Counted from the first letter of the stretch, positions 5,305-49,477 are shown. The stretch is DNA of 64,000 nucleotides from Planctomycetota bacterium (GCA_028280785.1 JANQLF010000278.1:2671-66670); one strand, 5' to 3'. Translations and numbers: made by a program. Notes: a model not told the origin generated them from the letters alone.

Positions 5305-5568
5305 ATGCTTCGCGCGCTTTTTTTATCCATAGTTATTTGTTTCGCTGTTCCCTTAGCAGCCTGTTACAACGATTCTGATATTCAGAGCTATGAGGAAGAA
5401 TTTGAATCCGAATACCTGCAACAAGGGGCTCCAGCTGAGGAAGAAGTACCGAGTGGCATAGCACTGTTCTTGAGAGACGCCGTTGTAAATGTCATTTTCG
5501 GCGTTGGCTTATTCTTCGTCCTCGTCTTTGCTGTTCGTGGCGATTTGCGTGTCGTCCACCGAAGCTAA
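5305..5568 (+). CDS. Small lipoprotein-like protein with a C-terminal hydrophobic segment
   Basis: It has a lipobox-like VPLAAC, an acidic middle region and the hydrophobic stretch VIFGVGLFFVLVFAV. Its 3' end overlaps the next ORF in another frame. Confidence 0.4.
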   Translation: MLRALFLSIVICFAVPLAACYNDSDIQSYEEEFESEYLQQGAPAEEEVPSGIALFLRDAVVNVIFGVGLFFVLVFAVRGDLRVVHRS

Positions 5569-9955: not shown

Positions 9956-9971
9956 TGTTCCACGTGGAACA
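9956..9971. promoter_or_regulatory. parS: parS centromere-like site 2
   Basis: This is an identical tgttccacgtggaaca copy 51 bp after site 1. Both sites share the flanks attgttccacgtggaacat. Confidence 0.85.
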
Positions 9972-10047
9972 TAGCGCTGCTTGCTCCCCCAGTATTCCAG
10001 TCGCCATTACTCTAGACAGCCCTTTGGCTCTATTAGACTCCGCCCCA

Positions 10048-12368: not shown

Positions 12369-15251
12369 TTAGCGCTTGGCTTTTTTAGCCTTCGCTTTTT
12401 TCTTTGCCGGTTTTTTAGCCGCTTTTTTCTTTTTGCCGCCGAGTTTAACACCTGCTTTGACAGCAGCCTTCGCAGCAGCCAAACGTGCAACAGGTACACG
12501 GAATGGGCTACAGCTGACGTAGGTTAAACCAACGCCGTGGCAGAATTCGATAGAAGCAGGATCGCCGCCGTGCTCACCACAGATACCAAGTTTGATGTCT
12601 GGACGAGTACTGCGACCGCCTTCAACACCAGCTTGGACCAATTTACCAACACCGGTTTGATCAAGCGAGGCAAATGGGTTGTTATCAACGATGGCAACTT
12701 CTGGTTTCTCGTAGTGAGGGAGGAAGGTACCAGCATCGTCACGCGACATACCCAAACAGGTTTGAGTTAAGTCATTGGTGCCAAAGCTGAAGAATTCAGC
12801 GTGCTCAGCTACTTCATCAGCGGTCAAAGCAGCGCGTGGAATTTCAACCATGGTGCCCACTTTGTATGGGATCTTGGTTTTAGCTGCAGCCATTTCTTCT
12901 TTGGCTACGCTATGCACGATGTCGAGTTGGAGTTCCAACTCACGGGCAAAGCCAACCAACGGAATCATGATTTCTGGTTGTGGTTTCTTCTTGGTTTTCT
13001 TGGCTACAGAAATCGCGGCTTTAATGATAGCGCGGGTCTGCATTTCAGAAATTTCAGGATAAACCACACCTAAACGACAGCCACGATGGCCAAGCATTGG
13101 GTTGCTCTCATGCAATGCTGCACAGCGATTTTCTACGTCGCCAACAGAAATGCCTAGTTTTTCAGCAAGGTCACGTTTTTGTTCTGGTGTTTGTGGTAAG
13201 AATTCGTGAAGTGGTGGGTCTAAGTAACGAACGGTAACTGGGCGACCGTCCATTGCTTTGAACAGACCTTCGAAGTCTTTTTGCTGAATTGGTTGTAATT
13301 TTTTAAGTGAATTATTGAAATGCTTAATCGCACCATCGTATTCATTGCGCAGTACTTTTTCATTACCGCCAGCAGCAAGTTTATCTTTAAATTCGCTGTA
13401 TTCGGCAGCGTACATAATTAATTCACGAACGTGGTCGATACGATCGCCTTCGAAGAACATATGCTCGGTACGGCAGAGACCGATACCTTCTGCACCAAAA
13501 GCAACAGCGTTACTTGCTTGATCAGGTTGGTCAGCGTTAGTACGAATACCAAGAACGCGCGCTTTATCAGCAAGCTTCATGACAAAGTCATAATATTTGA
13601 ATAATTCAGATTTGTTTGGTTTGAGTGATTTATCAACCAAGACCTGAATTAATTCAGATGGAGCTGTTTCGATCTTACCAGCAAAGATGTCACCGGTTGA
13701 ACCGTTAATCGAAATGAATTCACCTTCTTTGATGGTGGTACCACCAGCAGCGAGGGTGCCCTTCTTGTAGTCGATCAAGACATCGCCAGCACCAGCGACA
13801 CAGACCTTACCCATTTGACGGGCAACAACCGCAGCGTGTGAAGAAACACCGCCTTTGGCCGTTAAGATACCGTTTGCCGCAATCATACCGCGGAGGTCTT
13901 CAGGACTGGTTTCGATACGAGCAAGTACAACAGGACCATGCTTAGCAAACTCTTCGGCTTTTTCGGCCGTAAGTGCAAGTAAACCAGAAGCGGCGCCTGG
14001 GCCAGCAGGTAAACCGACTGCAATTTTTGAACCATCTTTAAGAGCCGTTGCCAAACCTTTTGCTTCAAAAATTGGAGCAAGCAGCTGCTCGATAGCTTCT
14101 GGATCAGCAGAAGAAATCGCGTGCTCTGGGCTCATTAATTTTTGCTTCACCATATCGTGAGCAATTTTTACGTAAGCTTGCGCGGTACGCTTACCATTAC
14201 GTGTTTGGAGTAAGAACAGTTCTTTATTTTCGATAGTGAATTCGAAGTCTTGTACATCACCGAATTCTTTTTCGAGTTTCTTGCGAACGGCTTCGAGTTC
14301 TTTGTGGGTTTTCTTCCAGTTGGCGTCTTTTGCCATATCGGCAATTGCCAATGGTGTACGAATACCAGCAACCACGTCTTCACCTTGCGCGTTAACAAGA
14401 TACTCACCGTAGAATTCGTTCACACCGTTTGCTGGGTTACGGGTAAAGGCAACACCAGTTGCACTGTCTTCGCCCATGTTACCGAATACCATCGATTGAA
14501 CGTTAACCGCTGTACCCCATTCCGCAGGAATGTTGTATTTTGCACGGTATAGAATAGCGCGGTCATTCATCCATGAACTAAATACCGCACCGATAGCGCC
14601 TTCAAGTTGCTTATTCACATCTTGTGGGAAAGCCTTACCAGTATGCTTTTTAATTAACTTAACAAAACCATTAATAACTTGGCGCAAGGCTTCTTCGTTG
14701 AGATCAACGTCTTCTTTGGCACCAACTTTATGTTTTACTTCTTCAAGAATTTCTTCAAACGGATCTTCTTCGTTATCATCTTTCTTTTGCACGCCCATAA
14801 CCACGTCGCCGTACATTTGAATAAAGCGACGATAGCAGTCATAAGCAAAACGACCGTCGTTGGTCAATGCTTTGAGACCTTCAACGGTTCTATCATTTAA
14901 ACCAAGATTAAGAACAGTATCCATCATACCTGGCATCGATTCACGCGCACCAGAACGTACCGCTACTAATAATGGATTCTTAGCATCGCCAAATTTTTTC
15001 TTTTGAACCTTTTCCATTTTCTTGATCGCGGCTGCAATTTCAGCCTTCAAGGTTTTTGGATACTTACGGCCATTGTCGTAGTAATAGGTGCAAACTTCTG
15101 TGGTAATAGTCAAACCAGATGGGACGTTAAATCCACGGCGACACATTTCGGCAAGGTTACAGCCCTTACCACCGAGTAAGTTCTTTAATTTTGCGCTTCC
15201 GTCGGCTTTACCGCCACCGAAGAAGTAAACATTTTTCTTGGCCTTGGCCAT
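12369..15251 (-). CDS. ppdK: Pyruvate, phosphate dikinase with an unusual Lys/Ala-rich C-terminal tail
   Basis: The protein is PPDK-like along its full length: N-terminal ATP-grasp ([26 protein letters not shown]), phosphohistidine motif [12 protein letters not shown], and PEP-utilizer TIM barrel ([11 protein letters not shown]). The last ~30 aa are [29 protein letters not shown]. Confidence 0.95.
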
Positions 15252-15504
15252 ACGATCTTCCTTGTTGCTTTTCAGGAACGACGCTAAACAGCGTCAGAGA
15301 GGAGTTTTGGATTAGTTCAAAAGGGCGCCCAAGCTACTTCCACTCCAATACTCGTCAATTGTCTCGGGGGCCTTGCCCCCAAACCCCCGCTCTCTTTGTC
15401 ATTGCTAATTTTCTACGAAAATTTCCTCGCAGGTAGCTCGGACCACTCTTCGGCGATCGCAGGCTCGAGAACTCGCCGCTCTTAACGTCGTAATCTTTAA
15501 GATT

Positions 15505-16689
15505 CTAATTAGGCAATGTTATTGGCATGATTAGGAAGCAGGAGTCGTCGCTGCGAATGATCAAACCCTTGCCAGGACCATTCAACTCGATCGTGCAATC
15601 ATCAGTGCCAAGGACTTTGAGCACCTCAGAGAGATATCCGGCGTTCATACCAATGCGCTCGTCACCACCATCAAAGGAACAGTTTATCGGAATACGCGCT
15701 GATCCAGTTGTATGATTGAGATTACTTAAGATCGCCTGACTTGCTTCTAGCTGCACGACAATTCCACGACTCGCAGCACTAGTCATCAAAGCGGTACGAC
15801 GAACACCTGAGAGCAGGTCTTTGGTCTTAAACGTAACTTTTGACTGACCACTGGTTGAAATGGCATTGCGGTAAGCTGGGTAAGAACCTTCGACTAAGCG
15901 GCTGCTCAGTTCTATTTGAATGCTACCACTGCCACCATCGCCTCCACCAATAGTACTGCGAATAAACACTATTTTCTTTTGAACACTTAACTCGACATCA
16001 TTTTTTGCGTTTGAACTGAGAATCCGATTAACGTGATTAACGGTAATCGCAGGTATAATTGCCTGTAATTCTTCATCACCGCCATATTGCTCGCTCTTAT
16101 CAACTGCTTCAGCGAGAATCTTACCATCAGTCGCGGCAAGTATCAGCTCACCATCACGTGCAGCAAGATAAACACCACTGAGCACGGCACTCGTACGATC
16201 GCGATCAACAGCAAATGAAGTCCTCTTAATCATTTGCTCAAGTGTCTGCGCTGGAACTTTGAGAATGGTACCACTATCAGGGAAGTGACTAATGGTTGGG
16301 AAAGTTTCACTAGCAATGATGGGTAGGTTGTAATCACCATCGCTCAATTTGATCTGGAGGAACTGTTGTCCATCATCGCTCATCAGATGCATATTCACAT
16401 CTGTTGAACTCGATTCTTTTAAAATACTCACCAATTGACGTGCTGGGATGATAACTTGTCCATCAGCATCAATTTCGATTCTTCTGACTATCGCTCGTAG
16501 ACCTACCTGAGTATCTGTAGCAGATACTTCCAATAGATGATCTGCTGCTTGTAGCTTCAGATTGTTCACAATTGGATTAGCACTATTATTCGGTACTACC
16601 GCATCAGCTGCCTGTAAGGCAAGTAAGAGGTCTTCACGTGGGCATCTGATTTGAAAGGTACGTTCTATAGTTAAAGATTCTTCATTCAT
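15505..16689 (-). CDS. dnaN: DNA polymerase III beta sliding clamp
   Basis: LLEVSATDTQVGLR, ILAATDGKILAE and a three-domain length of 394 aa are typical of DnaN. Confidence 0.93.
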   Translation of the reverse strand: MNEESLTIERTFQIRCPREDLLLALQAADAVVPNNSANPIVNNLKLQAADHLLEVSATDTQVGLRAIVRRIEIDADGQVIIPARQLVSILKESSSTDVNMHLMSDDGQQFLQIKLSDGDYNLPIIASETFPTISHFPDSGTILKVPAQTLEQMIKRTSFAVDRDRTSAVLSGVYLAARDGELILAATDGKILAEAVDKSEQYGGDEELQAIIPAITVNHVNRILSSNAKNDVELSVQKKIVFIRSTIGGGDGGSGSIQIELSSRLVEGSYPAYRNAISTSGQSKVTFKTKDLLSGVRRTALMTSAASRGIVVQLEASQAILSNLNHTTGSARIPINCSFDGGDERIGMNAGYLSEVLKVLGTDDCTIELNGPGKGLIIRSDDSCFLIMPITLPN

Positions 16690-17277: not shown

Positions 17278-19422
17278 ATGAGAAATATTTTTCTTCTAAT
17301 AATATTATTACCATGTTGTCTTTTTGCTGCCGATGAAATTAAAAATGGTGTTGAGCCAATTAAAATGGAGATAAGTCCAACATATGAAAATATTGGTATT
17401 AAATATCGATTTCATGGTGATGCGAATAATAATGTTAGTGGTAAAGTGACTTATCGAAAAAAAGGTGATGCAAAATGGTTAGAAGCACATTATCCAGTTA
17501 AAATACAAATAAATTACGGTCGAGGAAATACGAAACCATATGAGACTATGGCCACTTCAGTGATGTTTTTAAATGAAAATACTGAATATGAAGTTAACTT
17601 TGAAATTATAGATCCCGATGGCGTGACTAAGCAGTTGCCTAGCCAAACAGTAAAAACATTGAATTCAAAAGTTAATACTGGAACAGGTAAAATATATTAT
17701 ATCAACAATGATGCCGCTGAACATGGAGATGGTAGTAAAGAGAAACCATTTAATAATTTTAAAGCAATTAAATCATTGCAACCTGGTGATGTTCTTGAAT
17801 TAGTAAAAGGTACGCATCACCTTAGTTACTTAGATCAAATCACTCTCGAAGGTACTGAAGATGCCTATATTACTATACGTGGTTCTGACGGTGTAATTTT
17901 AACAGACGCTGATCCGAAAATAAGCGGTGTTGGTAAGTTACCATATGAATTACATAAAAAAGATGTAGATGGCCGCCAGATTTATAAGGCGGATGTACAA
18001 AATACGATAATGATGGCTGTACGAAAAAAGACCGGCAATCCTTCGACAAGCTATATATTTTGGGGTTTTACTACAAAGCAGAGTATATTTTGGGGTAAGG
18101 ATAAACGAGCAGGACCACATCGTGGCGCAACTTTAGAACATCTCGAACAAAACACTACGAATATGAATGAATACGGCGCATTTATACAGGATGGAGATAC
18201 ACTTTATTTTACGGTCCCTGATGGCATAGATATTAAGTTAGCTGATTTACAAATTTCCCGCCGTTATAAGGATAAAAATGGTAGCAGTTTTGTTCCTGGA
18301 GGATTACGGGTAGTAGGTAAATATGTAGTAATTGAGAACATTACTATGGAAAATCGCGTATCCATAAACTGCCGTGATTTCAGTAAAACAAAACCGTCAT
18401 CTAATATTATTGTAAGAAATATGCAAATGTATGGTAAAGTCGCTGATTATTATGGTGGTTTTGCAATAGCTAAAGATTCTTTAGTTGAGAATTGTTTAGC
18501 ACAACATAATTCGTATTGGGACTGGTATAGTTCAAAGCCGGCTCGTGTTGAAGGTAAAGGAAATAACCGACCGTATCCATGGTTTAAAATTAAAGACAAC
18601 CCAATGAATGATAGTTCAGTATTTAAGTATATGAGTGATGTGACTATACGCGATTGTACATTTATAAATCAATCAAATGCGTTACCAACATTTACGGCAA
18701 AAGATATTCCTGAAAAAGGAAATATTGATGTCTATAGAAATTATTTTCTTCGTACTGGTGATGACTGTATAGAACCTGATGGTGCTGGTATCAATATGCG
18801 TGTCTATGATAATAAAATGGAAGAGTTTCATAATGGTTTCAGTGATGCACCAGTTCATACTGGTCCTGCTTTTATCGTTCGTAATCAGTTTATAAAATTT
18901 CACCAAGCAGCTATAAAAATACGTAATGGTGCGCGCGGTTGGACTTTTTACTATCATAATGTTTGTGTACCAGAAACCGATACTAGTACTGCTGCAGATG
19001 GTAAAGGAAATGGAAAGTTTGCTTTTTGTCCGGATAGTGAAGGTGTAAAGAATATGGTAATGCGTAACAATATTTTCCATGCCAATGTAAATGCATATAC
19101 TTTACAAAATGCTCGTATGAAAATTGAAAAACACGTGACACTTGATTTAGACTATAATCTTTATTTTCCTTATATGAATAAATGGAAAATTATGTTCGAA
19201 GAAGAAAATGGGGTTCAAGAAAAACCGGTATATGTCGATGAAGAGAAAGGCGATTATCGCATAGGGAAGGAAGCAACGCAGCAAATTGATAAAGGTGAGA
19301 TCATTATAGGAATTAATGATCAAGTTCCTGCAACATATCAATTTAAGGGGGCTAAACCTGATATCGGTTTACTTGAGTTTGGTGTTGAAGCTCCTTACTA
19401 TGGAAGAAAAGCCAGTGAATAG
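17278..19422 (+). CDS. Secreted right-handed beta-helix (pectate-lyase-fold) protein, in a visibly AT-rich gene
   Basis: It has the SD aagggaggg, a signal peptide, and the cap motif GSKEKPFNNFKAIKSLQPGDVLELVKGTH, which is typical of parallel beta-helix carbohydrate-active proteins. GDDCIEPDG and repeated N-x-x turns follow. Codon third positions are strongly A/T compared with the neighbours. Confidence 0.7.
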   Translation: MRNIFLLIILLPCCLFAADEIKNGVEPIKMEISPTYENIGIKYRFHGDANNNVSGKVTYRKKGDAKWLEAHYPVKIQINYGRGNTKPYETMATSVMFLNENTEYEVNFEIIDPDGVTKQLPSQTVKTLNSKVNTGTGKIYYINNDAAEHGDGSKEKPFNNFKAIKSLQPGDVLELVKGTHHLSYLDQITLEGTEDAYITIRGSDGVILTDADPKISGVGKLPYELHKKDVDGRQIYKADVQNTIMMAVRKKTGNPSTSYIFWGFTTKQSIFWGKDKRAGPHRGATLEHLEQNTTNMNEYGAFIQDGDTLYFTVPDGIDIKLADLQISRRYKDKNGSSFVPGGLRVVGKYVVIENITMENRVSINCRDFSKTKPSSNIIVRNMQMYGKVADYYGGFAIAKDSLVENCLAQHNSYWDWYSSKPARVEGKGNNRPYPWFKIKDNPMNDSSVFKYMSDVTIRDCTFINQSNALPTFTAKDIPEKGNIDVYRNYFLRTGDDCIEPDGAGINMRVYDNKMEEFHNGFSDAPVHTGPAFIVRNQFIKFHQAAIKIRNGARGWTFYYHNVCVPETDTSTAADGKGNGKFAFCPDSEGVKNMVMRNNIFHANVNAYTLQNARMKIEKHVTLDLDYNLYFPYMNKWKIMFEEENGVQEKPVYVDEEKGDYRIGKEATQQIDKGEIIIGINDQVPATYQFKGAKPDIGLLEFGVEAPYYGRKASE

Positions 19423-24628: not shown

Positions 24629-24796
24629 GAACCACAGATTAATACAAATAGTATTATGGTGACGCATTCTTTCCCTGGGCACGCGGGCACCCTTGCCCAC
24701 ACAGAGACGTATATGCGGGCAGGGGTGCCCGCGTGCCCAGGAATTACACAACGTTAAACATTTATTTATGTTTATCTGTGTCCATCTGTGGTTCTA
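24629..24796. repeat. Intergenic nested-palindrome repeat, family 1, copy A
   Basis: The outer inverted repeat is gaaccacagat (24629-24639) with atctgtggttc (24784-24794). The inner perfect 19-bp stem is cctgggcacgcgggcaccc (24674-24692) with gggtgcccgcgtgcccagg (24723-24741). The right flank gtgtccatctgtggttcta is the reverse complement of 38541-38559. Confidence 0.8.
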
Positions 24797-25947: not shown

Positions 25948-27255
25948 ATGGCCGATCTCAAAGTCGCTAAGTTTGGTGGGACTTCTGTCGCTAACGCAGC
26001 ACAACTGCGTAAAGTAGCTGATATTATCAACGCTGATAAAGGGCGTCGTTTAATCATTCCATCAGCGCCAGGTAAGGAACATCCTGAAGATACCAAGATA
26101 ACCGATCTCTTGTACTTAGCGCATGAATTAGCCAGCAAACACCAAGATATCAGTTCCGTTTGGGGCAACATCGAAAAACGTTTTTTGGATATTATCAAAG
26201 AGTTAGGTATTACCTGTCGCTTACAGGGTGCACTTGATGATTGCCGCAAACAAATTGCCGAAGGCGCAAGCTCTGCCTACGCAGCAAGTCGCGGCGAAGC
26301 CTTAAATGGCCGTATTGTTGCAGCTTTGTTAGACGCAGAATATATTGATGCGAGTGAAGTTATTCGTTTTGATGAAAACAAACAATTAGATCCGATTACA
26401 CACGATTTAATTCGTAAGCGTTGCAGCGAAGAAAAACGTTACGTCATTCCTGGCTATTATGGCGCACAAGAAGACGGCAATGTGTGTACCTTTTCGCGCG
26501 GTGGCAGTGATGTAACCGGAGCGATTGTCGCTAATGCGCTTGATGCTAGTTTATATGAAAATTGGACCGATGTTTCAGGCGTATTAATTACTGACCCACG
26601 AATTGTTCCATCGGCGAAAACCATTACCGATATTACTTATCGTGAATTGCGCGAATTATCCTACATGGGTGCAAGCGTCCTACACGAAGAGGCGGTCTTT
26701 CCAGTGCGCGAAAAATCAATTCCTATTAATATCCGCAATACCAATAAACCAGACGAGGGTGGAACATTAATTGTTGCCGACCGTGACCCTGGTGACCAAA
26801 CGGTAACTGGTATTGCCGGTCGTGGCGGCTTTACCGTCTTTTTAATTGAAAAAGCCATGATGAATAACGAAGTCGGTTTCGGTCGTCGTGTGCTTGATGT
26901 GTTCGAAAGCTTCGGCGTGTCTTACGAGCACACGCCTTCTGGTATCGACACCATGTCAGTTGTGGTCAGCAATGATAATTTGGCAAATAATAAACAAAAA
27001 ATATTAGACGACCTTGAAACCGTTCACCCTGATCACATTGAGGTCATCGATAATATGGCTTTGGTTGCTACCGTGGGCAAAGGTATGAATCGCCAAGTCG
27101 GTGTTGCGGCAAAATTATTCAACGCCCTCGCCGACGCCAAAGTAAATATCCGCATGATCGACCAAGGTAGCTCCGAGCAAAATATTATCGTCGGCGTCGA
27201 AGAAGACGATTTGTCAAAAGCCATCAATGCAATTTATTCAACGTTTGTTAATTAA
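25948..27255 (+). CDS. lysC: Aspartate kinase
   Basis: It has the VAKFGGTSVAN start motif, FSRGGSDVTGA, and C-terminal tandem ACT regions (ALVATVGKGM, IRMIDQGSSEQNI). Confidence 0.93.
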   Translation: MADLKVAKFGGTSVANAAQLRKVADIINADKGRRLIIPSAPGKEHPEDTKITDLLYLAHELASKHQDISSVWGNIEKRFLDIIKELGITCRLQGALDDCRKQIAEGASSAYAASRGEALNGRIVAALLDAEYIDASEVIRFDENKQLDPITHDLIRKRCSEEKRYVIPGYYGAQEDGNVCTFSRGGSDVTGAIVANALDASLYENWTDVSGVLITDPRIVPSAKTITDITYRELRELSYMGASVLHEEAVFPVREKSIPINIRNTNKPDEGGTLIVADRDPGDQTVTGIAGRGGFTVFLIEKAMMNNEVGFGRRVLDVFESFGVSYEHTPSGIDTMSVVVSNDNLANNKQKILDDLETVHPDHIEVIDNMALVATVGKGMNRQVGVAAKLFNALADAKVNIRMIDQGSSEQNIIVGVEEDDLSKAINAIYSTFVN

Positions 27256-27265
27256 AGAGAAGAAC

Positions 27266-27526
27266 ATGAAGCACATCGCAAAGGCCCTCGTTTATATATG
27301 TGAATACGTCGACATGCGTAGCGATGAGCATAATGACGAGGACGATGACATCGAAGCCGTACAGCATGTCGCTGCATTGCTCGATAAATGCGACGGCGAA
27401 GAACGCAAAGCCCTCAAAAAAGCATCTTTAGCACTAGCTGAGGAAGAGGCTAAATCCGAAGACCCTAACGAGGAAATGGTCGAGGATTACGAAAACTGGG
27501 TAGGCGAATACCTCGACGGTAAATAA
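27266..27526 (+). CDS. Small acidic hypothetical protein (86 aa)
   Basis: ATG 27266 follows the SD-like aaagagaag, 11 nt after the lysC stop. The protein is very Asp/Glu-rich. Confidence 0.45.
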   Translation: MKHIAKALVYICEYVDMRSDEHNDEDDDIEAVQHVAALLDKCDGEERKALKKASLALAEEEAKSEDPNEEMVEDYENWVGEYLDGK

Positions 27527-27535
27527 GGTTTTCCA

Positions 27536-27601
27536 CCTGGGAACGAGGGTGTCTCCACCCTCGCAAGTCGCTCCGACGATGAGGCTATCGTCGTTCCCAT
27601 G
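27536..27601. repeat. Structured element with family-1-like termini (copy C, tentative)
   Basis: The termini cctgggaacga (27536-27546) and tcgttcccatg (27591-27601) resemble the CCTGGG...CCCAGG ends of copies A and B. They enclose the hairpins cgagggtg-tctc-caccctcg and cgacgat-gaggct-atcgtcg. Confidence 0.5.
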
Positions 27602-27725
27602 CTTAGAGGGGGCGCCAGCGAGCAGCCTCTGGCAGATTGATCTGAAACAGCCAGCCCTATAGTTTCTTCCGGCCTTATAGGACACAAATGAGATTTCGTT
27701 GTCCTTAGATTGCCAGGAGGACAAG

Positions 27726-28181
27726 ATGACAGAATTACTTATTTCCTGCAAAATTGATGGGCATGAGAAGCAATCAAGTTTTGATGACTTGATTTACAAG
27801 TTAGCCGAAGAGAAAGTCGAAATCTGTGAATTGATTCGACAGATAGTGACAGAACAAGTACGATCACTTAATGCCCGTAATGATATACAAGAGCAAGAGA
27901 AACGAAAAATCATTAACCGACAATATTTAAGACAAGAAGACATTGAAGAACAGGCTAAAGACGGGCGCATTGCTGTTAACGAAGCAAGCCAACACACGCC
28001 AGACAAGCAATCTCCCCTTATTGACCCCGATAAGGAAGCTCAATCAGCCGTTCGCGCATTTAAACGAGGTGCTTATTTTGTGCTTATCAATGGCAAGCAG
28101 GTTGAACCAGGAGACGAGTTGTCTTTAACTGAACAATCTAAATTAGTGTTTTTGCGCCTGACGCCCTTGGTTGGAGGATAA
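27726..28181 (+). CDS. Small protein with a MoaD/ThiS-like (beta-grasp-like) C-terminus ending in Gly-Gly
   Basis: ATG 27726 follows the strong SD aggagg. The C-terminus YFVLINGKQVEPGDELSLTEQSKLVFLRLTPLVGG-stop fits the pattern of MoaD (...FFPPVTGG) and ThiS (...VIAGG). The middle of the protein is a long charged, helical-looking segment. Confidence 0.6.
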   Translation: MTELLISCKIDGHEKQSSFDDLIYKLAEEKVEICELIRQIVTEQVRSLNARNDIQEQEKRKIINRQYLRQEDIEEQAKDGRIAVNEASQHTPDKQSPLIDPDKEAQSAVRAFKRGAYFVLINGKQVEPGDELSLTEQSKLVFLRLTPLVGG

Positions 28182-28182
28182 A

Positions 28183-31068
28183 ATGAGCGAAGAAGCCATC
28201 AAAGCATATCGTGATTGTTTTAAAGATGTTTACAAAGAAATATATAAGATTTGGGATTTTGATAAACATTTTAATACAGAGACAAACTCTTATCCGGTCA
28301 ATTTGAATCACAAATGGGACGAGGGGTGGGAAGCACCCGAAGAACACTACGAACAGCCCTTTAAAGACTATTTCATAGAAACAAAAAAGTATTTGTTAAA
28401 TGAATTAGAAAAAAATGACAATATGTCTGTTCAAATAGTTGAGCGAATGGCTAACGGTTATGGTAGGTATGTTTCTCATCAAGAGAAAGACCCGGGTATT
28501 TCGATTTGTGATAAAATGCTGTTGAACGTGTCTACGGAGATTCTTTTGAAGATGGATGCTGGCCCGATGTCAGCGCATCTTGAAAAGATTATTGAGGACA
28601 TGCTCAAACAACCTTTCATAGAAAACGAGTTTAAGCCGCAAATAGATGAAGTATTTAAATTTATCGATAAACCACATAGTCAAACATTATTAGATATTTG
28701 TAAAAAGGTTTTACTGGGTGCTTATCAAGACACCATCGAATATCCAAGTGAGTGGACAGAGATGTACGAAGTTAAAGAGGAGGGCGGAAGTTCGATACAC
28801 GCACTGACCTCAGTATTTAGCCTATATCTGAACATTTGTCTCCGTAACATGATGGAATCATTAATCAAAGCAGGACAATTCACCTATGAAGAATTTAAAA
28901 AATCCACCGAAGTGTTTGAAAATCTTGCAGGAGCTGGCTTAGACCTTGATGAGGAATACGGGTCGCATGAAACGTTGTTAAAATATTTTAATATGATGAA
29001 TTATGAAATGTTAGATACGAACGATCCGAATCTGGACAGATATTTTTCACGCTACGAATCAGTTTCGGGATATGAATATTTAATAAAGGGCTGTCATTTA
29101 CTCGAACAAACCAAACAGAAAATCAATTCTGAAAACAGAAAGCTGTTCGACATTCGGTTTTTATACGAGGACGAAGACAAGGTCTACAAAGAGCTTTTAC
29201 AATTTAAACCAGATACGCTTATCAAAGTGTTGCCATTTGCAGGGGCAGCCCAGTTTGCCGTGGCAAGGGCTATAGAATCTCAAACAGAGATGAAGGGTGT
29301 CGAACGTTTGTGTGTTAATCTGAATGATCTATTCAAAGATTTCGCCTGCGAGGATTATGTTGATCGCTACAAAGAAGTTGAGGCAACATCTCCAGATCCA
29401 AGCAAGGGCATTATAGACATATTAGATTGGAGGCAGGTATTTGATGATTTGGGCGAAAAAGGATCACGACAAATAATAAAAGAGTTTAACAAGAACAAAG
29501 ATGTAAAATCTGTTTATAAACTCTTATTGTATCCCGAGATCATGCTAGGAGAGAATGAGAAAACTATTCAAAAACGCATTAAGTCACGAAATCAAATAGC
29601 GATTCGTTCCTATGGCCTATGGCCGATTGATAAAAAGAAAGATCGCAAAAAGCAATTGTCTGAACGTTTTGCGTTTTACGAAAATTTTCTCAAGGAAAGT
29701 CAAAAATATGGCCAACAGCGACGGACTAACGAGGCTGCTGCATGTAAAGCAGGCTTGGAAAATTTAGCCAGAAACTTTGGCTATGAAGATGCTGCACGTA
29801 TGGAATTAGCCATAATGGCTGATGCGGCACAGGAAATACCCAAGCCGTTCTCGGATAAAACTTATGCCATTTCTGTTGATAATGGCAGCTTGGTTTGCGA
29901 ACTCGTTATCGAAAAGTCTGGAAAACGTATTAAGTCGATTCCCGCAGCACTTAAGAAGAACAAGCAGGTTGTAGCCCTCAAGGATTTTGTGAGCGAGCAG
30001 AAAAAAATGTTTACGCGCTATCGTCGCACACTCGAAAACATGTGTGTTAATCGCGAACAACTGTCCGTTGCCGACATAAAAGACATTAGTCGAATGAATT
30101 GTGTTGGGCAGATGTTAAAGCGCTTGGTGCTATACACGGATACAGAAACTTTTGTAACGTATGATCTTGACACACAATCCTTTTTTGACATTTCTTTGAA
30201 AAAGGCAAAGGCGTTTAAGTCATGCACGATTGCTCACCCACAGGATTTTTATAAGCACAAATTGCTCTCTCAGTGGCAGCAAGAAATTGTTAAAAGAGAA
30301 ATAATACAACCATTTAAACAAGTGTTCAGAGAGTTGTATGTGGCAACACCGGCAGAACTAAAAACAAAGAACCAATCGATGCGCTTTGCCAATCATTGTC
30401 TTAATTCGCGGCAATTTTCAGCATTGCTTTCTAATCGAGGCTGGACCGTAAAAACAGGTTACGACTGGTGTATACTGAAATTGTTGCCAGCGTGGGGTTT
30501 TCAGGTCGAACTGGAGCTTGGTGGTGATATTGGGCATTATTTAACTGAACTTGAGACGGCGACAACAGGACCACTTACATTTTCAAAATATCCATCAAGT
30601 GGCGATCGTGAAAAAGACACATTGCTCATAAAAGATGTCCCGGCTCAAGCCTTTTCCGAAATTATGCGCGATATGGATTTATTTTGCAGCGTTGCACATA
30701 CAACAGAAGAGGATGTCTATTACACGTTCGAACGCAATTCGAGTAATACTGAGTTAGCCAAAACTATACTTGAAAACCTCGGCATAGAAGGCATCGGTTT
30801 TGATGGAAACTTTGTAAAAGTCAGCGGTAGTCTCGCAAATTATCGGGTAAACCTTAACAGCGGCGCCGTACACATCGATCCGGGTTCCCATGTTTGCATC
30901 GTGCCTGATCGTTCAGCAGCAAAATATAAGCCAGACTATTTACCCTTTATCGATAAGGAGGATCCGACGCTGAGCATTGTTATCAGTAAAGTGATTCTTC
31001 TGTATAACGATAAAAAGATTAAGGATGCGGTGATTCTTGATCAGATCAAAGCCAGCCAAGGTGCTTAG
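28183..31068 (+). CDS. Large cytoplasmic protein, probable DUF4132 (MolR/YehI-type) family
   Basis: ATG 28183 lies 1 nt after the upstream stop, and the SD ggagga is formed by the upstream Gly-Gly codons. QPFKQVFRELYVATPAE and the C-terminal block YRVNLNSGAVHIDPGSHVCIVPD match my recollection of DUF4132 proteins. There is no signal peptide or TM helix. Confidence 0.6.
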   Translation: MSEEAIKAYRDCFKDVYKEIYKIWDFDKHFNTETNSYPVNLNHKWDEGWEAPEEHYEQPFKDYFIETKKYLLNELEKNDNMSVQIVERMANGYGRYVSHQEKDPGISICDKMLLNVSTEILLKMDAGPMSAHLEKIIEDMLKQPFIENEFKPQIDEVFKFIDKPHSQTLLDICKKVLLGAYQDTIEYPSEWTEMYEVKEEGGSSIHALTSVFSLYLNICLRNMMESLIKAGQFTYEEFKKSTEVFENLAGAGLDLDEEYGSHETLLKYFNMMNYEMLDTNDPNLDRYFSRYESVSGYEYLIKGCHLLEQTKQKINSENRKLFDIRFLYEDEDKVYKELLQFKPDTLIKVLPFAGAAQFAVARAIESQTEMKGVERLCVNLNDLFKDFACEDYVDRYKEVEATSPDPSKGIIDILDWRQVFDDLGEKGSRQIIKEFNKNKDVKSVYKLLLYPEIMLGENEKTIQKRIKSRNQIAIRSYGLWPIDKKKDRKKQLSERFAFYENFLKESQKYGQQRRTNEAAACKAGLENLARNFGYEDAARMELAIMADAAQEIPKPFSDKTYAISVDNGSLVCELVIEKSGKRIKSIPAALKKNKQVVALKDFVSEQKKMFTRYRRTLENMCVNREQLSVADIKDISRMNCVGQMLKRLVLYTDTETFVTYDLDTQSFFDISLKKAKAFKSCTIAHPQDFYKHKLLSQWQQEIVKREIIQPFKQVFRELYVATPAELKTKNQSMRFANHCLNSRQFSALLSNRGWTVKTGYDWCILKLLPAWGFQVELELGGDIGHYLTELETATTGPLTFSKYPSSGDREKDTLLIKDVPAQAFSEIMRDMDLFCSVAHTTEEDVYYTFERNSSNTELAKTILENLGIEGIGFDGNFVKVSGSLANYRVNLNSGAVHIDPGSHVCIVPDRSAAKYKPDYLPFIDKEDPTLSIVISKVILLYNDKKIKDAVILDQIKASQGA

Positions 31069-36507: not shown

Positions 36508-38532
36508 ATGCCCAATTTTACTCTACCTGATGGAGCGACGCTAAGTTTGGAAGGCGAAGTCACGGGCTTCGACATAGCCAAAGCGATCAGCTCTAGTTTG
36601 GCAAAAAAGGCCTTGGCTATCAAGGTCGACGATGAGGTATTGGATCTTGCTCGAACTATCACCGCTGATGCCAGCATCAGCATAATCATGCCGGACAATG
36701 AAGACAAAGACGCACTTGATGTGCTGCGTCATTCTTGTGCCCACGTTTTAGCTGAAGCGGTATGTGAATTATTTCCCGGAACCAAATTAGCATATGGTCC
36801 TGCGGTCGATGATGGCTTCTTTTATGATATGGCGACGCCGAAAGCAGTAACGGCCGAAGATTTTCAAGCCATCGAAAAAAAGATGAAACAAATCATCAAA
36901 GAGAACCGTCGCTTTGTTCGTTGTGAATATTCAACCGATGATGGCCTCAAGCGCACTGATGGTGATAAATATAAAACAGACAATGCTGAGCGCGCCATTG
37001 AACGCGGTTCTGAATCATTGTCATTTTATGTAACCGGTGAAGAGGGTAAGCATTTTGAAGATTTGTGCGCAGGTCCGCATGTTCCTAGCACTGGCAAATT
37101 AAAAGCATTTAAAGTGACGGCCGTTTCTGGCGCCTATTGGCACGGTGATCAATCATCAGATCAATTAACCCGTATCTACGGTACCTGTTTTGCAGATCGT
37201 GATGGGCTTGATGCCCACTTAAAACGTTTGGAAGAAGCCAAAAAACGTGACCACCGTAAAATCGGTAAGGAAATGCAATTATTCCATATTGATGAAGAAA
37301 ATCCTGGGCAAATATTTTGGCACCATAACGGTTGGTCAATTTATCGTACAGTAGTGGATTACGTACGTGGTAAGATTCTCGATAATGGTTACATCGAAGT
37401 GAAGTCACCACCGATGATGCCGCAAAGCCTTTGGGAAAAATCAGGGCATTGGGCGAAATACCGTGAGAACATGTTTATTACATGGGAAAATGTAACCAAA
37501 GAAGGCGATGACTGTGACCACGATCACGGTTGCGGACATGACCATGGCGATGAAGCGAATAAGAAAGAAGGCGAAGATCGCGTTTTTGCTTTAAAACCAA
37601 TGAATTGTCCCGGCCACATCGAAATATTCAAACAGCATTTACACAGTTACCGCGACCTTCCATTACGTATGGCAGAATTTGGATCGTGCACACGTTTCGA
37701 ACCGAGCGGTGCTTTGCATGGTATCATGCGTGTACGTGGATTCGTACAGGACGACGCACATATTTTTTGTAGTGAAGATCAAATAGCACAAGAAGTCGCA
37801 GATTTTTGCGAACTCTTAAAAGAAATTTATGACGCATTTGGTTTCACCTCAGATAAAGTAAAAGTTAAATTCTCTACACGCCCAGAGGTTCGTGTTGGTA
37901 GTGATGAATCGTGGGATCGTGCAGAAGCGGCTTTAGAAGATGCCTGCAAATTAGCTGGCTTAGAGTATGAAGTCAGCCCAGGTGAAGGCGCTTTCTATGG
38001 TCCGAAACTTGAGTTTACCTTGCTAGACTGCTTAGGTCGTGAATGGCAGTGCGGAACAATTCAAGTTGATTATCAATTACCATCAGCGGAACGTTTAAAT
38101 GCAACCTATATCGGCGAAGACGGTAATAAACATAACCCGGTTATGTTGCACCGTGCTATCTTAGGCAGCATCGAGCGTTTCATTGGCATTTTGATTGAAG
38201 AATTCGCAGGCAAATTTCCATTGTGGCTGGCGCCAGAACAAGTGCGTATTTTACCGGTCACTGACGAGCATAAAGATTACGCTGAATCAGTTTGCGAAGA
38301 ATTAAAAGCTGTGGGCATCTTATGCACGGTAGACTCGAAGTCTGAAAAACTCGGTGCAAAAATTCGCAACGCTCGTAATGCGCGAGTGAATTATTTCGCT
38401 GTGGTTGGCGCTCAAGAAATCGAAGAAAAAACCGTTTCATTGCAACAGCAAGACGGTACTAAACTCGGTTCCAAAGATGTGGCTACCTTAATTAGTGAAC
38501 TGCAGGACGAAATAAATACCAAACGTCTTTAG
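36508..38532 (+). CDS. thrS: Threonyl-tRNA synthetase with a His/Asp/Cys-rich insertion
   Basis: It has the TGS N-terminus, the editing-domain motif HSCAHVL, the class II core [17 protein letters not shown], and an anticodon-binding C-terminus. The extra segment [31 protein letters not shown] precedes KPMNCPGH. Confidence 0.95.
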   Translation: [674 protein letters not shown]

Positions 38533-45871: not shown

Positions 45872-48800
45872 TTAGTAAATTTTCTTGAGCCACTCGTCAG
45901 CTTTTTGTTTGAGCTGCTCGGCACTTAATGCTTCCCCATCTTTACCAAAGTGCGATGACTCCAGTTCTTGAATGGACGAGGCAATGCTTTGACGATCGGC
46001 ATCACTGAGTGCTAATTGCTTATCGGCTTGTAGGGCACGTAATAAAGCGCAGATGCTAAATACCGAAATGTCTTTAGGCATGCTATAGGTGCGCGCTTCT
46101 TCAGTTTGTGCTTTCGGTTTCATGATGACATAGGCAAAGACACCTGCGAAAGCGACAACTATTAAAATGTACCAAATAGAATTATCGGTTTCTGCAGGTT
46201 TAACGTTAATAGCAAAGGTGGCGGTCGCCTCTTCGATGTCTGCATCGTTATAGCGTTTGGTCACTAATTCAGCGTCAGTGACGAGCTTGGGAAAGCTAAA
46301 CGAGGTCACTTCTTTTTCAGGGCTATAATGAATGCGCCACATACGTTTGCTAATTGGTGAGCTGCCTTCGTCATCAATTTCTAAACGTTCGATCATTGGT
46401 TCTTCACTCAGACGATCAGTTTCTTTCCATGGACCGCTTAAGTCACCAACGATCTTATCAAGTTCAGGTAAGACACCTTTACCAGTGGCGTGTATTTCTA
46501 GAAGAATTTCACCTTCATCGATTTTACGATTATCCATGATCATTTCGACTTTGAGTTCACGCAGCGGACGCTCAGCAGCCTTGTGGGCGTCAATTAATTG
46601 TTCGCCTGAATCAACAGGTAAAATAACCGTTCCGTGACCATCTAAGAAATCCATGTCTAAGTGGAGGGCTGGTATGCGATCAACACTGGCGTCTTTGGCT
46701 TTTAATACCGCGTAAGCAAAGGGTGTTTCTTGCCAGCGATCGCGACCAAAACCTATGCTTTTCACGGTTGGCTCATGGAAGCTGATTTCAGTAATGTCAA
46801 AGCGTTCACTTAAAGTATCGCGAATATGTTTTTCAAAGTCATCGCGGTAATCGACCGGTGCTTTGTTATAGGAAATATACACTTGGTTGCTCAAGAATTT
46901 AGCAAAGCCGCCAGCTTCACGGGCAATCGCATCGGTATGGCGTAAAGAAATGTGCAAGCCAAATGGCGTTTCTCCTACATCAGTAGCACCGTCAACGGCC
47001 ACATGCAGCGTAATTTCTGATAAGAGATCGTCATAAAATGCCAGTAATTCACGAGCAATGTCTCCGCCTTTATGATCACCAAGCACGATAAGTGATGATT
47101 CTAAGTAACGTGGTTTTAATTCACCGGGAACTTGTTGCAGATTGCCGGTGATGGCTTTGCCAAAGGCTTCGAGATGCCATTCACGTTGTTTGTCGTCGAG
47201 CGATAAAAGATTATCGCGTAATTCCTTGAGGCGCTCTTCTTCAGGATCTTGCTGGCGAGTTAAGACCGATAGGTCACTGGCACCGAGCAGCGAATTAAAC
47301 CAAGACACATAGGGTTGGGCAGTGCGTGTTTCCATGTTCATGTGCTTCAAATAAACATCAGTAGCTTGTTTAAACAAGTTGAGCGATTTATCACGTTGAG
47401 CCGTGTAGACCTTGAGGTTTTCTTCTTGGCCGTAGAGGAATTCGGCGTGATCAAAAATCAATTGCGCCTGCATGATTTGTGCTTGCCAATATTGCTGATC
47501 GCGTTTTTGCACTTCATCAATGATTTCACCAGCTAATTGGTAGCCGCGTTTAACCTCGGCAATTAATTGTTTGTTGGTACGCTTGGTCTTTTCTTTTTGT
47601 TGAACTTTGGGTTGGCGCCAACGCTGTCCAAGGTTTTGACGCATTTTACCAACCAATTGCAGCATAGTCATTTTATCGAGCGATTCGAATGAGCCGAAAA
47701 CAGTCTCGAGGTCTTTGCGGAAATAAACCTCTGCTTGAGAATGACAGGCGTCAAAAGCAGCGAGTATCGCATTCGACTCAATTTTAGGTAAGTGAATCGC
47801 ATAAAGTTGTTTTAATAAATCAGCGAGCTCTTTGAGATATTTATTTTGCTTAGCCCGAGTGAGGGGGATGCCCTGTGGTTGTTGGCGACCGTAGTAGCTG
47901 CGGCTATAGAAGGCGCCGCCATACATATTGTAAGAATCATAGCGGTTATAATTATTACCACGCTCGGGACGATGTTGGGTTGCCCAGACGTTTAAAACAT
48001 TGGCAGCTAAAGATTGGGCTTCATCAACATCAGTTTTTGCCAGTTCGCGAATAATATCCATGGCACCGCTGATATCACCAGCCTTGCACATCAATGCACC
48101 GTTAAGCGAATGAATGCTCTGGGCTAAGCCCTTATCCAACTGTGGATACCATAATTTATTTGGGCCAAATTTTAATAAGATCGCAGCATCGACTGGTTTT
48201 TTATTATTACGGCGATTGCGGTTGTAGTAGTAGTTATCGTTTTGATTTTGGTTTTGTTGTTGATTGAGTGCAAAGTCAGCTTCTTTAATCCATGACATGG
48301 CAATTAAGTTAATAGGCACTGACCACTCCTCGACCTTAACGGAGAAGTTTTTCAATAAGCTATTGACGATACGATGCTGCAGTTCCATGGCTTTGACGCG
48401 TGGTTCCATCTCTTTGCCTTGAAAGCTATATTTTAATTGCTCACTGAGCATAGCTAACATGCGCATGCCTTGGTCCGGACGACTGGCAAAGCTTTCATGC
48501 AACCATTGTTGGCCTTCATCCTCGGTGACTAAAAGTAATAAATCGAGCGAGCGTTGCACGGCACTGCGCACTGTTTCTAAATCAGTGTCTTTATGAGCCA
48601 AGACTTCCAAAGTCAGCATCCAACCTTTTTTAAGAGCATCTTTATTATTGTCTTGACCAATAGCACTTAAATAACGCGCATGCACATCAAGAATCTTAGG
48701 ATCACCACTGGCTTTCGCTTCTTCGAGTGGTGGTAAAAACGCACCGGCTTCTTTAATAAAATCGCCAGCCAATAATAAAGAAACAGCACGGGCACGCTTC

Positions 48801-49477
48801 GCCTGGTCTTCGCCACCAAAGTGTTCGGTGCCCTTTTGCAAAATAGCCATCAAGCTACCACTGTTACCAGTTTTATTGATCGCCTTGCGTACTAATCCAG
48901 ATAGGCGACCTAAAATCTCATTATCATATTCGAGAGGCCAGGCTTCAGCGACGCCGAGTACATCTTGTGGTAAGATAATTGATTGTTCACGCTGTAAGCC
49001 GCCAAGCATGCGATTAAAGATGCGTTTTTGTTCGCCTTCGTTGAGTGGTTTTAATTGATCCTTAACCAGGCTCCATTCGCCGCGCATCACCGCCGCGTTA
49101 AATGCATCGGCTTGTTTTTTGCCGATACGCTGGATGCGCTGATTGTCGTTTTCCTTTTCAGGAATTTTTTCCTCAGGCTGCTTGCCCATTTTATCGGCGA
49201 GACTATTGACCACCAAATCAGATGAGCGTTCGAAACGGAAGCGCGAAGCAGCATTGACAAAAGCACTGCGAATTTTTTGCTCTTCCTGCTTTTTCTTTTC
49301 CTCTTCGCTGACCTTTGGTTTGTCAGCGTTGTCATCACTGCTGGTGTCTTCGGTTACTTCGACTGCACCATCACCAAAGGTTTCCATTTCTTCAACAGGC
49401 ACATCAAAAATAATTTCTGATGCATCAGTGTACTGCCAAAAGCAAGTTAATAAAACTATAAAGAAATACTTTTTCAT
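45872..49477 (-). CDS. Very large (1201 aa) terminal protein of the Bat-like operon (BatD position)
   Basis: It has a signal peptide and a long helical-looking region with an N/Q/Y-rich low-complexity patch (QQQNQNQNDNYYYNRNRRNNKK). A single TM near the C-terminus (IWYILIVVAFAGVFAYVIM) is followed by a cytoplasmic tail. Assignment to BatD rests on position only. Confidence 0.6.
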   Translation of the reverse strand: MKKYFFIVLLTCFWQYTDASEIIFDVPVEEMETFGDGAVEVTEDTSSDDNADKPKVSEEEKKKQEEQKIRSAFVNAASRFRFERSSDLVVNSLADKMGKQPEEKIPEKENDNQRIQRIGKKQADAFNAAVMRGEWSLVKDQLKPLNEGEQKRIFNRMLGGLQREQSIILPQDVLGVAEAWPLEYDNEILGRLSGLVRKAINKTGNSGSLMAILQKGTEHFGGEDQAKRARAVSLLLAGDFIKEAGAFLPPLEEAKASGDPKILDVHARYLSAIGQDNNKDALKKGWMLTLEVLAHKDTDLETVRSAVQRSLDLLLLVTEDEGQQWLHESFASRPDQGMRMLAMLSEQLKYSFQGKEMEPRVKAMELQHRIVNSLLKNFSVKVEEWSVPINLIAMSWIKEADFALNQQQNQNQNDNYYYNRNRRNNKKPVDAAILLKFGPNKLWYPQLDKGLAQSIHSLNGALMCKAGDISGAMDIIRELAKTDVDEAQSLAANVLNVWATQHRPERGNNYNRYDSYNMYGGAFYSRSYYGRQQPQGIPLTRAKQNKYLKELADLLKQLYAIHLPKIESNAILAAFDACHSQAEVYFRKDLETVFGSFESLDKMTMLQLVGKMRQNLGQRWRQPKVQQKEKTKRTNKQLIAEVKRGYQLAGEIIDEVQKRDQQYWQAQIMQAQLIFDHAEFLYGQEENLKVYTAQRDKSLNLFKQATDVYLKHMNMETRTAQPYVSWFNSLLGASDLSVLTRQQDPEEERLKELRDNLLSLDDKQREWHLEAFGKAITGNLQQVPGELKPRYLESSLIVLGDHKGGDIARELLAFYDDLLSEITLHVAVDGATDVGETPFGLHISLRHTDAIAREAGGFAKFLSNQVYISYNKAPVDYRDDFEKHIRDTLSERFDITEISFHEPTVKSIGFGRDRWQETPFAYAVLKAKDASVDRIPALHLDMDFLDGHGTVILPVDSGEQLIDAHKAAERPLRELKVEMIMDNRKIDEGEILLEIHATGKGVLPELDKIVGDLSGPWKETDRLSEEPMIERLEIDDEGSSPISKRMWRIHYSPEKEVTSFSFPKLVTDAELVTKRYNDADIEEATATFAINVKPAETDNSIWYILIVVAFAGVFAYVIMKPKAQTEEARTYSMPKDISVFSICALLRALQADKQLALSDADRQSIASSIQELESSHFGKDGEALSAEQLKQKADEWLKKIY

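Follow-up and report, generated by a model that had tools for sequence, protein, structure and literature searches.

Does a Gly-Gly pair at the very end of a small bacterial protein act as a protein signal, or is it present only as the Shine-Dalgarno sequence of the gene that follows? The question is raised by a two-gene locus at positions 27,527 to 31,068 of a 64,000-nucleotide stretch of DNA (the window, which throughout means the whole stretch analysed) from a Planctomycetota bacterium (GCA_028280785.1 JANQLF010000278.1:2671-66670). Sulfur-carrier and ubiquitin-like (Ubl) beta-grasp proteins end in an exposed Gly-Gly (MoaD FFPPVTGG, ThiS VIAGG, ubiquitin LRLRGG), and a preliminary description of the locus had proposed an undescribed module in which a Ubl-like protein ending in this way works with, or is handled by, a large DUF4132 protein encoded immediately downstream. 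Our analysis supports this proposal, which survives all four of the refuting checks listed with it: on the fold of the small protein, on conservation of the GG, on adjacency to the large gene and on the DUF4132 match. The small protein appears to represent a new family among the GG-terminated beta-grasp carriers and modifiers, with a new uncharacterised partner and without a linked E1, and one member of the family is already in the literature under another description. The elements of the locus are:

27527..27725, + strand: intergenic leader 5' of the small gene, with a hairpin at 27544-27563 and an inverted repeat at 27656-27681
27714..27719, + strand: Shine-Dalgarno sequence AGGAGG of the small gene, read from the sequence
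27726..28181, + strand: small gene, 151 residues (open reading frame (ORF) call), with a predicted beta-grasp product ending FLRLTPLVGG-stop
28173..28178, + strand: Gly-Gly codons GGA GGA, which form the Shine-Dalgarno sequence (GGAGG) of the large gene, read from the sequence
28183..31068, + strand: large gene, 961 residues (ORF call, Pfam matches, and homologues 3' of the small gene in other genomes)

This layout is as first described and is plainly seen in the sequence. The ATG of the small gene at 27726 is 6 nt 3' of its AGGAGG, and the 151-residue product terminates in GAYFVLINGKQVEPGDELSLTEQSKLVFLRLTPLVGG, with the codons gga gga followed by taa at 28179-28181; the C-terminal stretch in the window is ...SKLVFLRLTPLVGG. 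A single base (28182) separates this stop from the ATG of the large gene at 28183, and the Gly-Gly codons (GGAGGA) are the sole Shine-Dalgarno-like element for the large ORF. The caution that these codons do double duty is thus correct for the window, and the issue is whether they are selected for translation initiation instead of for the protein.

An exhaustive phmmer search with the small protein finds 383 clusters (50% identity) at E <= 1e-3, nearly all of them 135-160 residues long and aligned through the last residue. Among representatives of the best 151 of these 383 clusters, an exact GG end is present in 140, within the motif F[LIV]R[LV]xPLxGG; five have 2-3 extra residues past the GG, and one is a 1178-residue fusion. 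G150 and G151 are the sole invariant columns in an alignment of 119 sequences, and the frequency of GG ends is far beyond chance. We also back-translated the peptide FLRLTPLVGG with full degeneracy, giving 46 genome loci, and compiled a codon table that covers 47 loci. All four Gly codons are found at both positions, with GGAGG (GGA GGN) formed in 18 of the 47 and GGC, GGT or GGG used, without any GGAGG, in the other 29. The first Gly codon is GGA in 12 of the 24 tightly coupled pairs (gap -8 to +13 nt) and in two of the nine widely spaced ones (gap 29-155 nt), all nine of which keep the GG. One example is locus L029, a wide-gap pair that has its own separate AGGAGG further downstream and retains the GG, which is also kept in orphan small genes. 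Because codon choice varies and the GG persists at gaps of 29-155 nt and in orphans, we conclude that it is selected at the protein level; translational coupling appears, from the codons, only to bias the choice of GGA. The contrary explanation, in which the GG is a by-product of a GGAGG kept as the downstream Shine-Dalgarno sequence and the small ORF lacks any Ubl-like role, draws on the window and locus L001, where the GG codons are the downstream Shine-Dalgarno sequence, and on the enrichment of GGA in tightly coupled pairs, but it fails on the codon and gap table, and the entire small protein is conserved with a predicted beta-grasp fold. We consider it ruled out, with a negligible chance of being correct.

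The family is absent from Pfam, NCBIfam and PADLOC, in which the window protein has no family match (the only one, to Avs2 in PADLOC at 10 bits, is at chance level), and its members are annotated as 'hypothetical protein' in RefSeq; a word-index search with the small protein returned one relative. An AlphaFold2 model built from the 119-sequence alignment has a predicted local distance difference test score (pLDDT) of 83 and a predicted template modelling score (pTM) of 0.77, and shows strand 1 (residues 2-10), strand 2 (22-26), helix 1 (33-50), an insert, strands 3-5 (117-121, 131-133 and 139-144) and a tail (145-151). By position, the small gene encodes:

27729..27875, + strand: residues 2-50, strands 1 and 2 and helix 1 with conserved ELIxRxVxEQ (pLDDT 88-96)
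27876..28064, + strand: residues 51-113, charged helical/disordered insert between helix 1 and strand 3, with an RQYL motif and G80 (AlphaFold2, conservation)
28065..28178, + strand: residues 114-151, strands 3-5 and the 7-residue flexible tail LTPLVGG (AlphaFold2, conservation)

Within the insert, helices are modelled at 56-67, 70-78 and 101-113, and the loop at 79-100 has pLDDT 51-63; in the tail, pLDDT drops to 47. Near-invariant positions in the 119 sequences are L36, I37, V41, F142, R144, P147 and L148. The best Foldseek match in the PDB is human MOCS2A (5mpo; probability 1.0, TM 0.71 on the target), followed by MoaD (1nvi/1fm0/1jwb, E. coli MoaD), SAMP1 (4hro), Urm1 (2k9x/6yuc), mycobacterial MoaD and then assorted Ubl domains. 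The model thus shows the small protein, over its whole length, as a predicted ThiS/MoaD/Urm1-class beta-grasp broken by a helical insert of ~60 residues. A beta-grasp had been anticipated for residues ~105-151 only, which is too narrow, and the charged middle segment that had seemed atypical of a minimal beta-grasp corresponds to the insert.

The pairing with the large gene is similarly conserved. A homologue of the window's large protein is encoded directly 3' of the small gene in ~38 of the 46 motif loci, 34 of them identified by phmmer and four, where the gene runs off the contig, by tblastn. The 46 loci belong to a Thermoplasmata archaeon and to Chloroflexota, Actinomycetota, Cyanobacteriota (Chamaesiphon and the Obscuribacterales/Melainabacteria group), Planctomycetota, Acidobacteriota, and Gamma- and Alphaproteobacteria. 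Divergent members outside the motif selection (P0047, P0084, P0154) are also followed by a DUF5724/DUF4132/DUF7737 gene, and the three closest large homologues (P0004, P0005, P0157) are all preceded by a small ORF without a Pfam match, so that the adjacency predicted in the preliminary description holds when checked from the side of either protein. RefSeq examples include plasmids of Chondrinema litorale and Bacteroides finegoldii, in which a 'hypothetical protein' precedes a 'DUF4132 domain-containing protein'. One subgroup departs from this arrangement (P0137, ending MAFSGG; locus L052, 6001-6456), where the small gene is an orphan, flanked by genes for an arginase and an AsnC-type regulator and without a DUF4132 gene in its vicinity. 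The distance matrix of the small proteins correlates with that of the large ones (Mantel r = 0.84, 0/2000 permutations), also inside each of two subfamilies. All-against-all clustering of neighbours in the 46 loci reveals no third conserved gene, and the module was not found in phage genomes or viral contigs. The pair constitutes a single module that is conserved, inherited together and in most cases translationally coupled; it is widespread but rare, and spans more than 10 phyla plus one archaeon.

The large protein has three Pfam matches, all in its C-terminal part:

29521..29808, + strand: residues 447-542, C-terminal end of DUF5724 (last ~100 profile positions; E = 5e-23)
29920..30444, + strand: residues 580-754, DUF4132 (PF13569), full profile (E = 2e-36)
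30751..31047, + strand: residues 857-955, DUF7737 (E = 6e-24)

The assignment to DUF4132 is secure (125.8 bits, against a gathering cut-off of 27), and the other two matches are to PF24879 (DUF7737) and to PF18991 (DUF5724), in the latter only to its C-terminal part. There is no match in NCBIfam or PADLOC, no PDB chain is related by sequence, and word-index searches with the protein or its profile find three proteins each. In an alignment of 36 homologues the N-terminal half is poorly conserved and the C-terminal ~520 residues are well conserved. Invariant residues are H685, Q709, P710, Q713, R716, E717, Y719, E725, R734 and W754 in DUF4132, an SExxRDxD motif (E826, R829, D832) just before DUF7737, and G882, Y887, K936 and D943 in DUF7737. 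The polar ones among these invariant residues are concentrated in DUF4132 and DUF7737 and form a candidate active site. A Cys/His catalytic pair in DUF7737 was considered and rejected, because the window protein carries N890 and because P0004 and P0005 lack C905. An AlphaFold2 model from a five-row alignment has residues 1-295 below pLDDT 50, and a Foldseek search with it returned only helical-repeat noise and nothing meaningful; a PDB profile search likewise matched no more than helical repeats, weakly and in the N-terminal half. We suggest that the protein consists of a variable helical-repeat (alpha-solenoid) N-terminal half and a conserved DUF5724-C/DUF4132/DUF7737 core.

The member of the family that has already been studied is in Deinococcus radiodurans. 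The drA0165-drA0166 operon has a radiation/desiccation response motif (RDRM) at -83 and is strongly derepressed on DdrO depletion, and the DRA0166 protein rises after mitomycin C treatment in an IrrE-dependent manner (PMC8533742). The DR_A0165 product has been studied as 'SEP068184', an 83-residue peptide encoded by a small ORF and said to be Deinococcus-only, which is up after irradiation and H2O2, whose deletion raises H2O2 resistance, which binds Trx1 and co-purified with many proteins, and whose predicted structure resembled MOCS2A (5MPO) and SAMP1 (PMC9650054). The SEP068184 sequence (...LRAFEDGLYYVFVDDEQVETLDETVALQPDSTLLLLRLTALAGG) is related to the present family with an hhalign probability of 99.4% (E = 2e-21), and we note that the genomic DR_A0165 is longer, encoding 134 residues (WP_227086044.1) and ending ggg ggc tga, with the 83-residue peptide as its C-terminal part:

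L065 4848-5252 (NZ_OV024759.1 43323-43727): D. radiodurans small gene, 134 residues

DR_A0166 starts 2 nt after DR_A0165 and encodes 1626 residues with DUF5724, DUF4132 and DUF7737, and the published RDRM is located upstream of DR_A0165 in the genome. The DdrO-regulon gene product DR_A0166 is likely to be the partner of the DR_A0165 product; DR_A0166 is not found by name in the searchable supplements of PMC9650054. The suggestion that the module is undescribed therefore needs qualifying, since both genes have been studied (PMC9650054, PMC8533742), and what is new is the recognition of the Ubl/DUF4132 pairing: the searchable papers do not mention that the small protein is a GG-terminated beta-grasp protein associated with DUF4132, how long it really is, or how widely it is distributed. 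The upstream neighbours of DR_A0165 are trxC and two YeeE/YedE sulfur-transport genes.

Motifs for damage regulation were also sought 5' of the small genes in the other loci. An exact copy of the actinobacterial RecA-NDp/PafBC-type promoter motif for RecA-independent DNA-damage induction (TGTCRGTG-N8-TAnnnT) is present in L001 (1322-1343, at -55 from the small gene), and a copy with one mismatch in L023 (Plantactinospora; 9966-9987, at -29); this search was post hoc, and there are five such motifs in total in 203 kb of actinobacterial loci. Apart from these two actinobacterial sites and a GTTC-N4-GAAC palindrome upstream of the small gene in L004, no SOS, Cheo, cyanobacterial LexA or RDRM boxes lie 5' of the small genes, and the gammaproteobacterial loci contain no SOS box. 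DNA damage or oxidative stress turns the module on at least in Deinococcus, and probably also in some actinobacteria; a physiological role in the organism of the window is something we infer.

What might the two proteins do together? We propose that the small protein has the large one as its dedicated partner and would insert its GG tail into a conserved polar pocket on this partner. The terminal carboxylate would be activated or used there, as an acyl-adenylate, as a thiocarboxylate or in a transfer reaction, by analogy with MoaD, ThiS and CysO, and either the large protein or a housekeeping MoeB/ThiF-type enzyme with its gene at another locus would carry out the activating step. We would give this model an even chance. 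Covalent chemistry at the C-terminus of the small protein, taken over both the dedicated-partner model and the broad protein modification discussed below, which overlap, has somewhat better prospects. To our knowledge, every well-understood GG beta-grasp family uses an E1-type adenylating enzyme. It is improbable, but conceivable, that the DUF4132-DUF7737 protein is instead a new enzyme unrelated to E1s, which would activate the Gly-Gly carboxylate of its partner and then transfer it or load it with sulfur, giving a self-contained two-protein system, of the Ubl or sulfur-carrier kind, that would serve in DNA-damage and oxidative stress in many bacterial phyla and in at least one archaeon.

Several observations weigh against the dedicated-partner model. 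No E1-like, E2, JAB, rhodanese or other recurrent partner gene is linked to the pair in the window or in the surveyed loci, as had been noted for the immediate surroundings; no ThiF/MoeB domain is present among the called neighbours, though an E1 may be encoded elsewhere in the genome. At the sequence level the window protein matches none of the ThiS (PF02597), Urm1 (PF09138) and ubiquitin (PF00240) profiles at E <= 1, none of the 119 family members matches the ThiS, Urm1 or ubiquitin models at E <= 0.1, and hhalign comparisons with E. coli MoaD (probability 2%, in the correct register) and ThiS (1.5%) are not significant, so we reject membership of these families by sequence. DUF7737 has no universal Cys or His, and the model of the large protein is too poor (pLDDT 57.7) to reveal a pocket. 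In 4-5 of the 46 loci the small gene is an orphan or the large gene is decayed, and the window leader contains no RDRM of the Deinococcus type and no SOS, Cheo or RecA-NDp motif. Finally, there is a minority clade (Bacteroides finegoldii WP_117810361.1, L060, L062, P0080, P0119) in which the small protein ends SGRMW, SGRLW, RGIIW or GGIF and yet pairs with the large gene. Members ending SGRLW, SGRMW or RGIIW, each followed by a DUF4132/DUF7737 gene, are at:

L066 4839-5258
L060 2535-2954
L062 ~2292-2609

As this clade does not end in GG and is still paired, a free Gly-Gly carboxylate is not universal unless the tails are processed. Precursors of Atg8 and SUMO are trimmed after a Gly, and the SGR[LM]W, RGIIW and GGIF tails may, by analogy, either be trimmed in the same manner or indicate that a free Gly carboxylate is dispensable.

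The pairing of these variants speaks for a different explanation, in which the beta-grasp protein is a non-covalent regulatory or assembly subunit, a stoichiometric chaperone, lid or adaptor whose GG, having no side chains, would merely fit a narrow groove, with its carboxylate taking no part in any chemistry. This explanation also agrees with the lack of linked E1, E2 and JAB genes, with the tight translational coupling, which suggests 1:1 co-assembly, and with the strong co-evolution of the two proteins, and it could draw on the fused ORF of Dictyobacter kobayashii (P0050, WP_126550351.1), in which small and large proteins form the single 1178-residue product. However, the junction of that fusion, PLIG-DKL-M, is what the loss of one nucleotide in GGAGGATAA would yield, and may reflect a sequencing error or a real frameshift; it looks like a 1-nt frameshift and not a designed fusion. 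Moreover, a tail lying in a groove would tolerate extensions more, whereas a stop exactly after the GG in 140 of 151 representatives is a hallmark of carboxylate-using families, and every one of the best structural matches is a carrier activated at its carboxylate. We therefore regard a purely non-covalent subunit as a possible but less probable explanation. Broad protein modification, of the SAMP/TtuB/Urm1 type, would have the small protein conjugated to lysines under stress by way of an unlinked MoeB/ThiF/UbaA-type E1, with the DUF4132 protein as ligase, adaptor or main target. SAMP and TtuB systems work with unlinked E1s and need no E2 or E3, and the leading structural matches include SAMP1 and Urm1. 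Urm1 similarly relies on an unlinked E1 and works without E2 or E3 (PMC9574740). The few members with short extensions past the GG resemble modifier precursors, and the Deinococcus member is stress-induced and co-purifies with many proteins (PMC9650054), but the N- and C-tagged forms of that protein pulled down overlapping sets, which is unexpected for C-terminal conjugation (PMC9650054). There is also no linked JAB or other deconjugating protease, nor a processing protease for the extended variants, and the strict pairing with one large protein speaks for a dedicated partner and not a broad modifier; we think this explanation quite unlikely.

An anti-phage defence system or a toxin-antitoxin-like pair on mobile DNA can be given very little credence. 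Defence is indeed the function of some Ubl systems of bacteria (Bil, Bub, CBASS Cap2), the phyletic spread of the pair is patchy and includes an archaeon, and its GC content is slightly lower than that of its flanks (0.38-0.42 against 0.44-0.47), a drop that the preliminary description had pointed out and that proves modest. However, PADLOC gives only the chance Avs2 match for the small protein and none for the large one, neither phage genomes nor viral contigs contain matches, the neighbours are housekeeping genes without recurring integrase or defence genes, and DNA-damage regulators are the ones known to control it (PMC8533742); we have set this reading aside for want of support from PADLOC, phage genomes or viral contigs. 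The model we favour remains that of a small protein with a single dedicated partner. GG-terminated beta-grasp proteins are at the root of sulfur-carrier chemistry and of ubiquitin-type signalling, and the sole constant partner of this family is a large protein made of three domains of unknown function; if that partner handles the GG tail, this would be a first function for DUF4132 and DUF7737 and possibly a new activation chemistry. The Deinococcus work is also reinterpreted by these results, with the stress-induced 'Deinococcus-specific' SEP068184 being part of a 134-residue Ubl-like protein of many phyla. Together with the reported place of molR in the LexA regulon (as stated in PMC8533742, where the E. 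coli gene is so described), this makes a role for DUF4132 after DNA damage testable in a tractable model organism.

The leader upstream of the small gene had been described as packed with hairpins, and this is only weakly borne out. The fold of 27524-27730 has z = -2.2, with 8 of 200 shuffles equally stable, and there is one perfect hairpin, of 8 bp and GC-rich, at 27544-27563 directly 3' of the stop of the upstream ORF. An inverted repeat CCTATA-N14-TATAGG at 27656-27681, ~-70 to -45 from the ATG of the small gene, is unique in the window and could be an operator. We found no Rfam match at E <= 1 and no consensus promoter or terminator in the leader, and with a fold barely better than shuffles a riboswitch or known RNA is rejected. 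The upstream ORF is very acidic (27227-27526, + strand; 99 residues, or 86 from the ATG at 27266) and overlaps the end of lysC; it stops 200 nt 5' of the small gene, matches no family and does not recur beside the module elsewhere.

The flanking genes in the window encode housekeeping functions: hisB, an RNA methyltransferase-like gene, lysC, a matrixin-like protease, an M14-like peptidase, a sugar kinase and thrS, with dnaN and ppdK more distant. The presence of ppdK, dnaN and thrS (12369-16689 on the - strand; 36508-38532 on the + strand) confirms a chromosomal, non-mobile context. None of 20 other window ORFs has a ThiF/MoeB domain, and three large ORFs (17278-19422, 45872-49477 and 5489-7153) have no Pfam match. 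A near-perfect hairpin of ~70 nt (24671-24743, GC 0.71) between the convergent hisB and methyltransferase-like genes, which gives spurious microRNA matches in Rfam, probably represents either a repeat element or a terminator that acts in both directions. There is also a MoxR (AAA_3)-DUF58-VWA-VWA (Bat-like) operon at 49489-54709 on the - strand, 18 kb from the pair; MoxR and VWA genes also lie beside E. coli yehI, but those are of a different type and the resemblance is probably a coincidence.

Among known systems, E. coli YehI and MolR (YehF-YehH) are the DUF4132 proteins to which the window protein had been likened, and 'MolR/YehI type' is only loosely right because YehI shares just the DUF4132 core (21% identity over ~260 residues, E = 4e-4 by BLASTP). 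The BLASTP match ends at that core, with no region equivalent to DUF7737 aligned, and the WGR domain of the E. coli protein is absent from the window protein (Pfam). The E. coli yeh locus has no GG-ended small gene upstream, and DUF4132 is tied there to MoxR, VWA and SWIM genes; YehK, tried as a counterpart of the small protein, is unrelated and has no GG. The place of molR in the LexA regulon, as reported in PMC8533742, does echo the damage regulation of the Deinococcus pair. Bil, Bub and CBASS Cap2/Cap3 resemble the module in that a compact bacterial operon encodes a small Ubl protein ending in Gly, but they are anti-phage systems and encode E1, E2, and JAB or other peptidases, whereas none of these genes accompanies the present pair. 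SAMP1/2 of Haloferax, TtuB of Thermus and Urm1 are closer in several respects, including the structural match to SAMP1 and Urm1, the GG end, an E1 that is not necessarily linked, and a response to stress; the present module differs from them in its obligate pairing with one large protein of unknown function and in having no linked JAB, and any conjugates of the small protein are hypothetical.

DR_A0165 and DR_A0166 belong to the same small-protein family, with the ...LRLTxLxGG end, and to the same large-protein domain set, separated by 2 nt as against 1 nt in the window. They differ in that DR_A0166 has 1626 residues and a full DUF5724, whereas the 961-residue window protein has only the C-terminal end of that domain, and in the RDRM/DdrO operator of the Deinococcus operon, for which the window has no counterpart; in the literature, the Deinococcus small protein has been connected neither with DUF4132 nor with a role as a GG-terminated Ubl. 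The sulfur-carrier pairs MoaD/MoaE, ThiS/ThiG and CysO/CysM (PF02597) differ from the window module in sequence profile, in lacking its ~60-residue helical insert, and in their partners, as a protein of 650-1700 residues with HEAT-like, DUF4132 and DUF7737 regions is unrelated to MoaE, ThiG or CysM; the module also has no linked MoeB/ThiF, and a thiocarboxylate is only hypothetical here. The tails of MoaD, ThiS and CysO enter MoeB/MoaE, ThiF/ThiG and CysM, respectively. These pairs likewise consist of a beta-grasp protein with a flexible Gly-Gly tail, and the gene for the carrier adjoins, and is often coupled to, the gene for the protein that receives the tail, as the small gene here does with the gene for its proposed partner.

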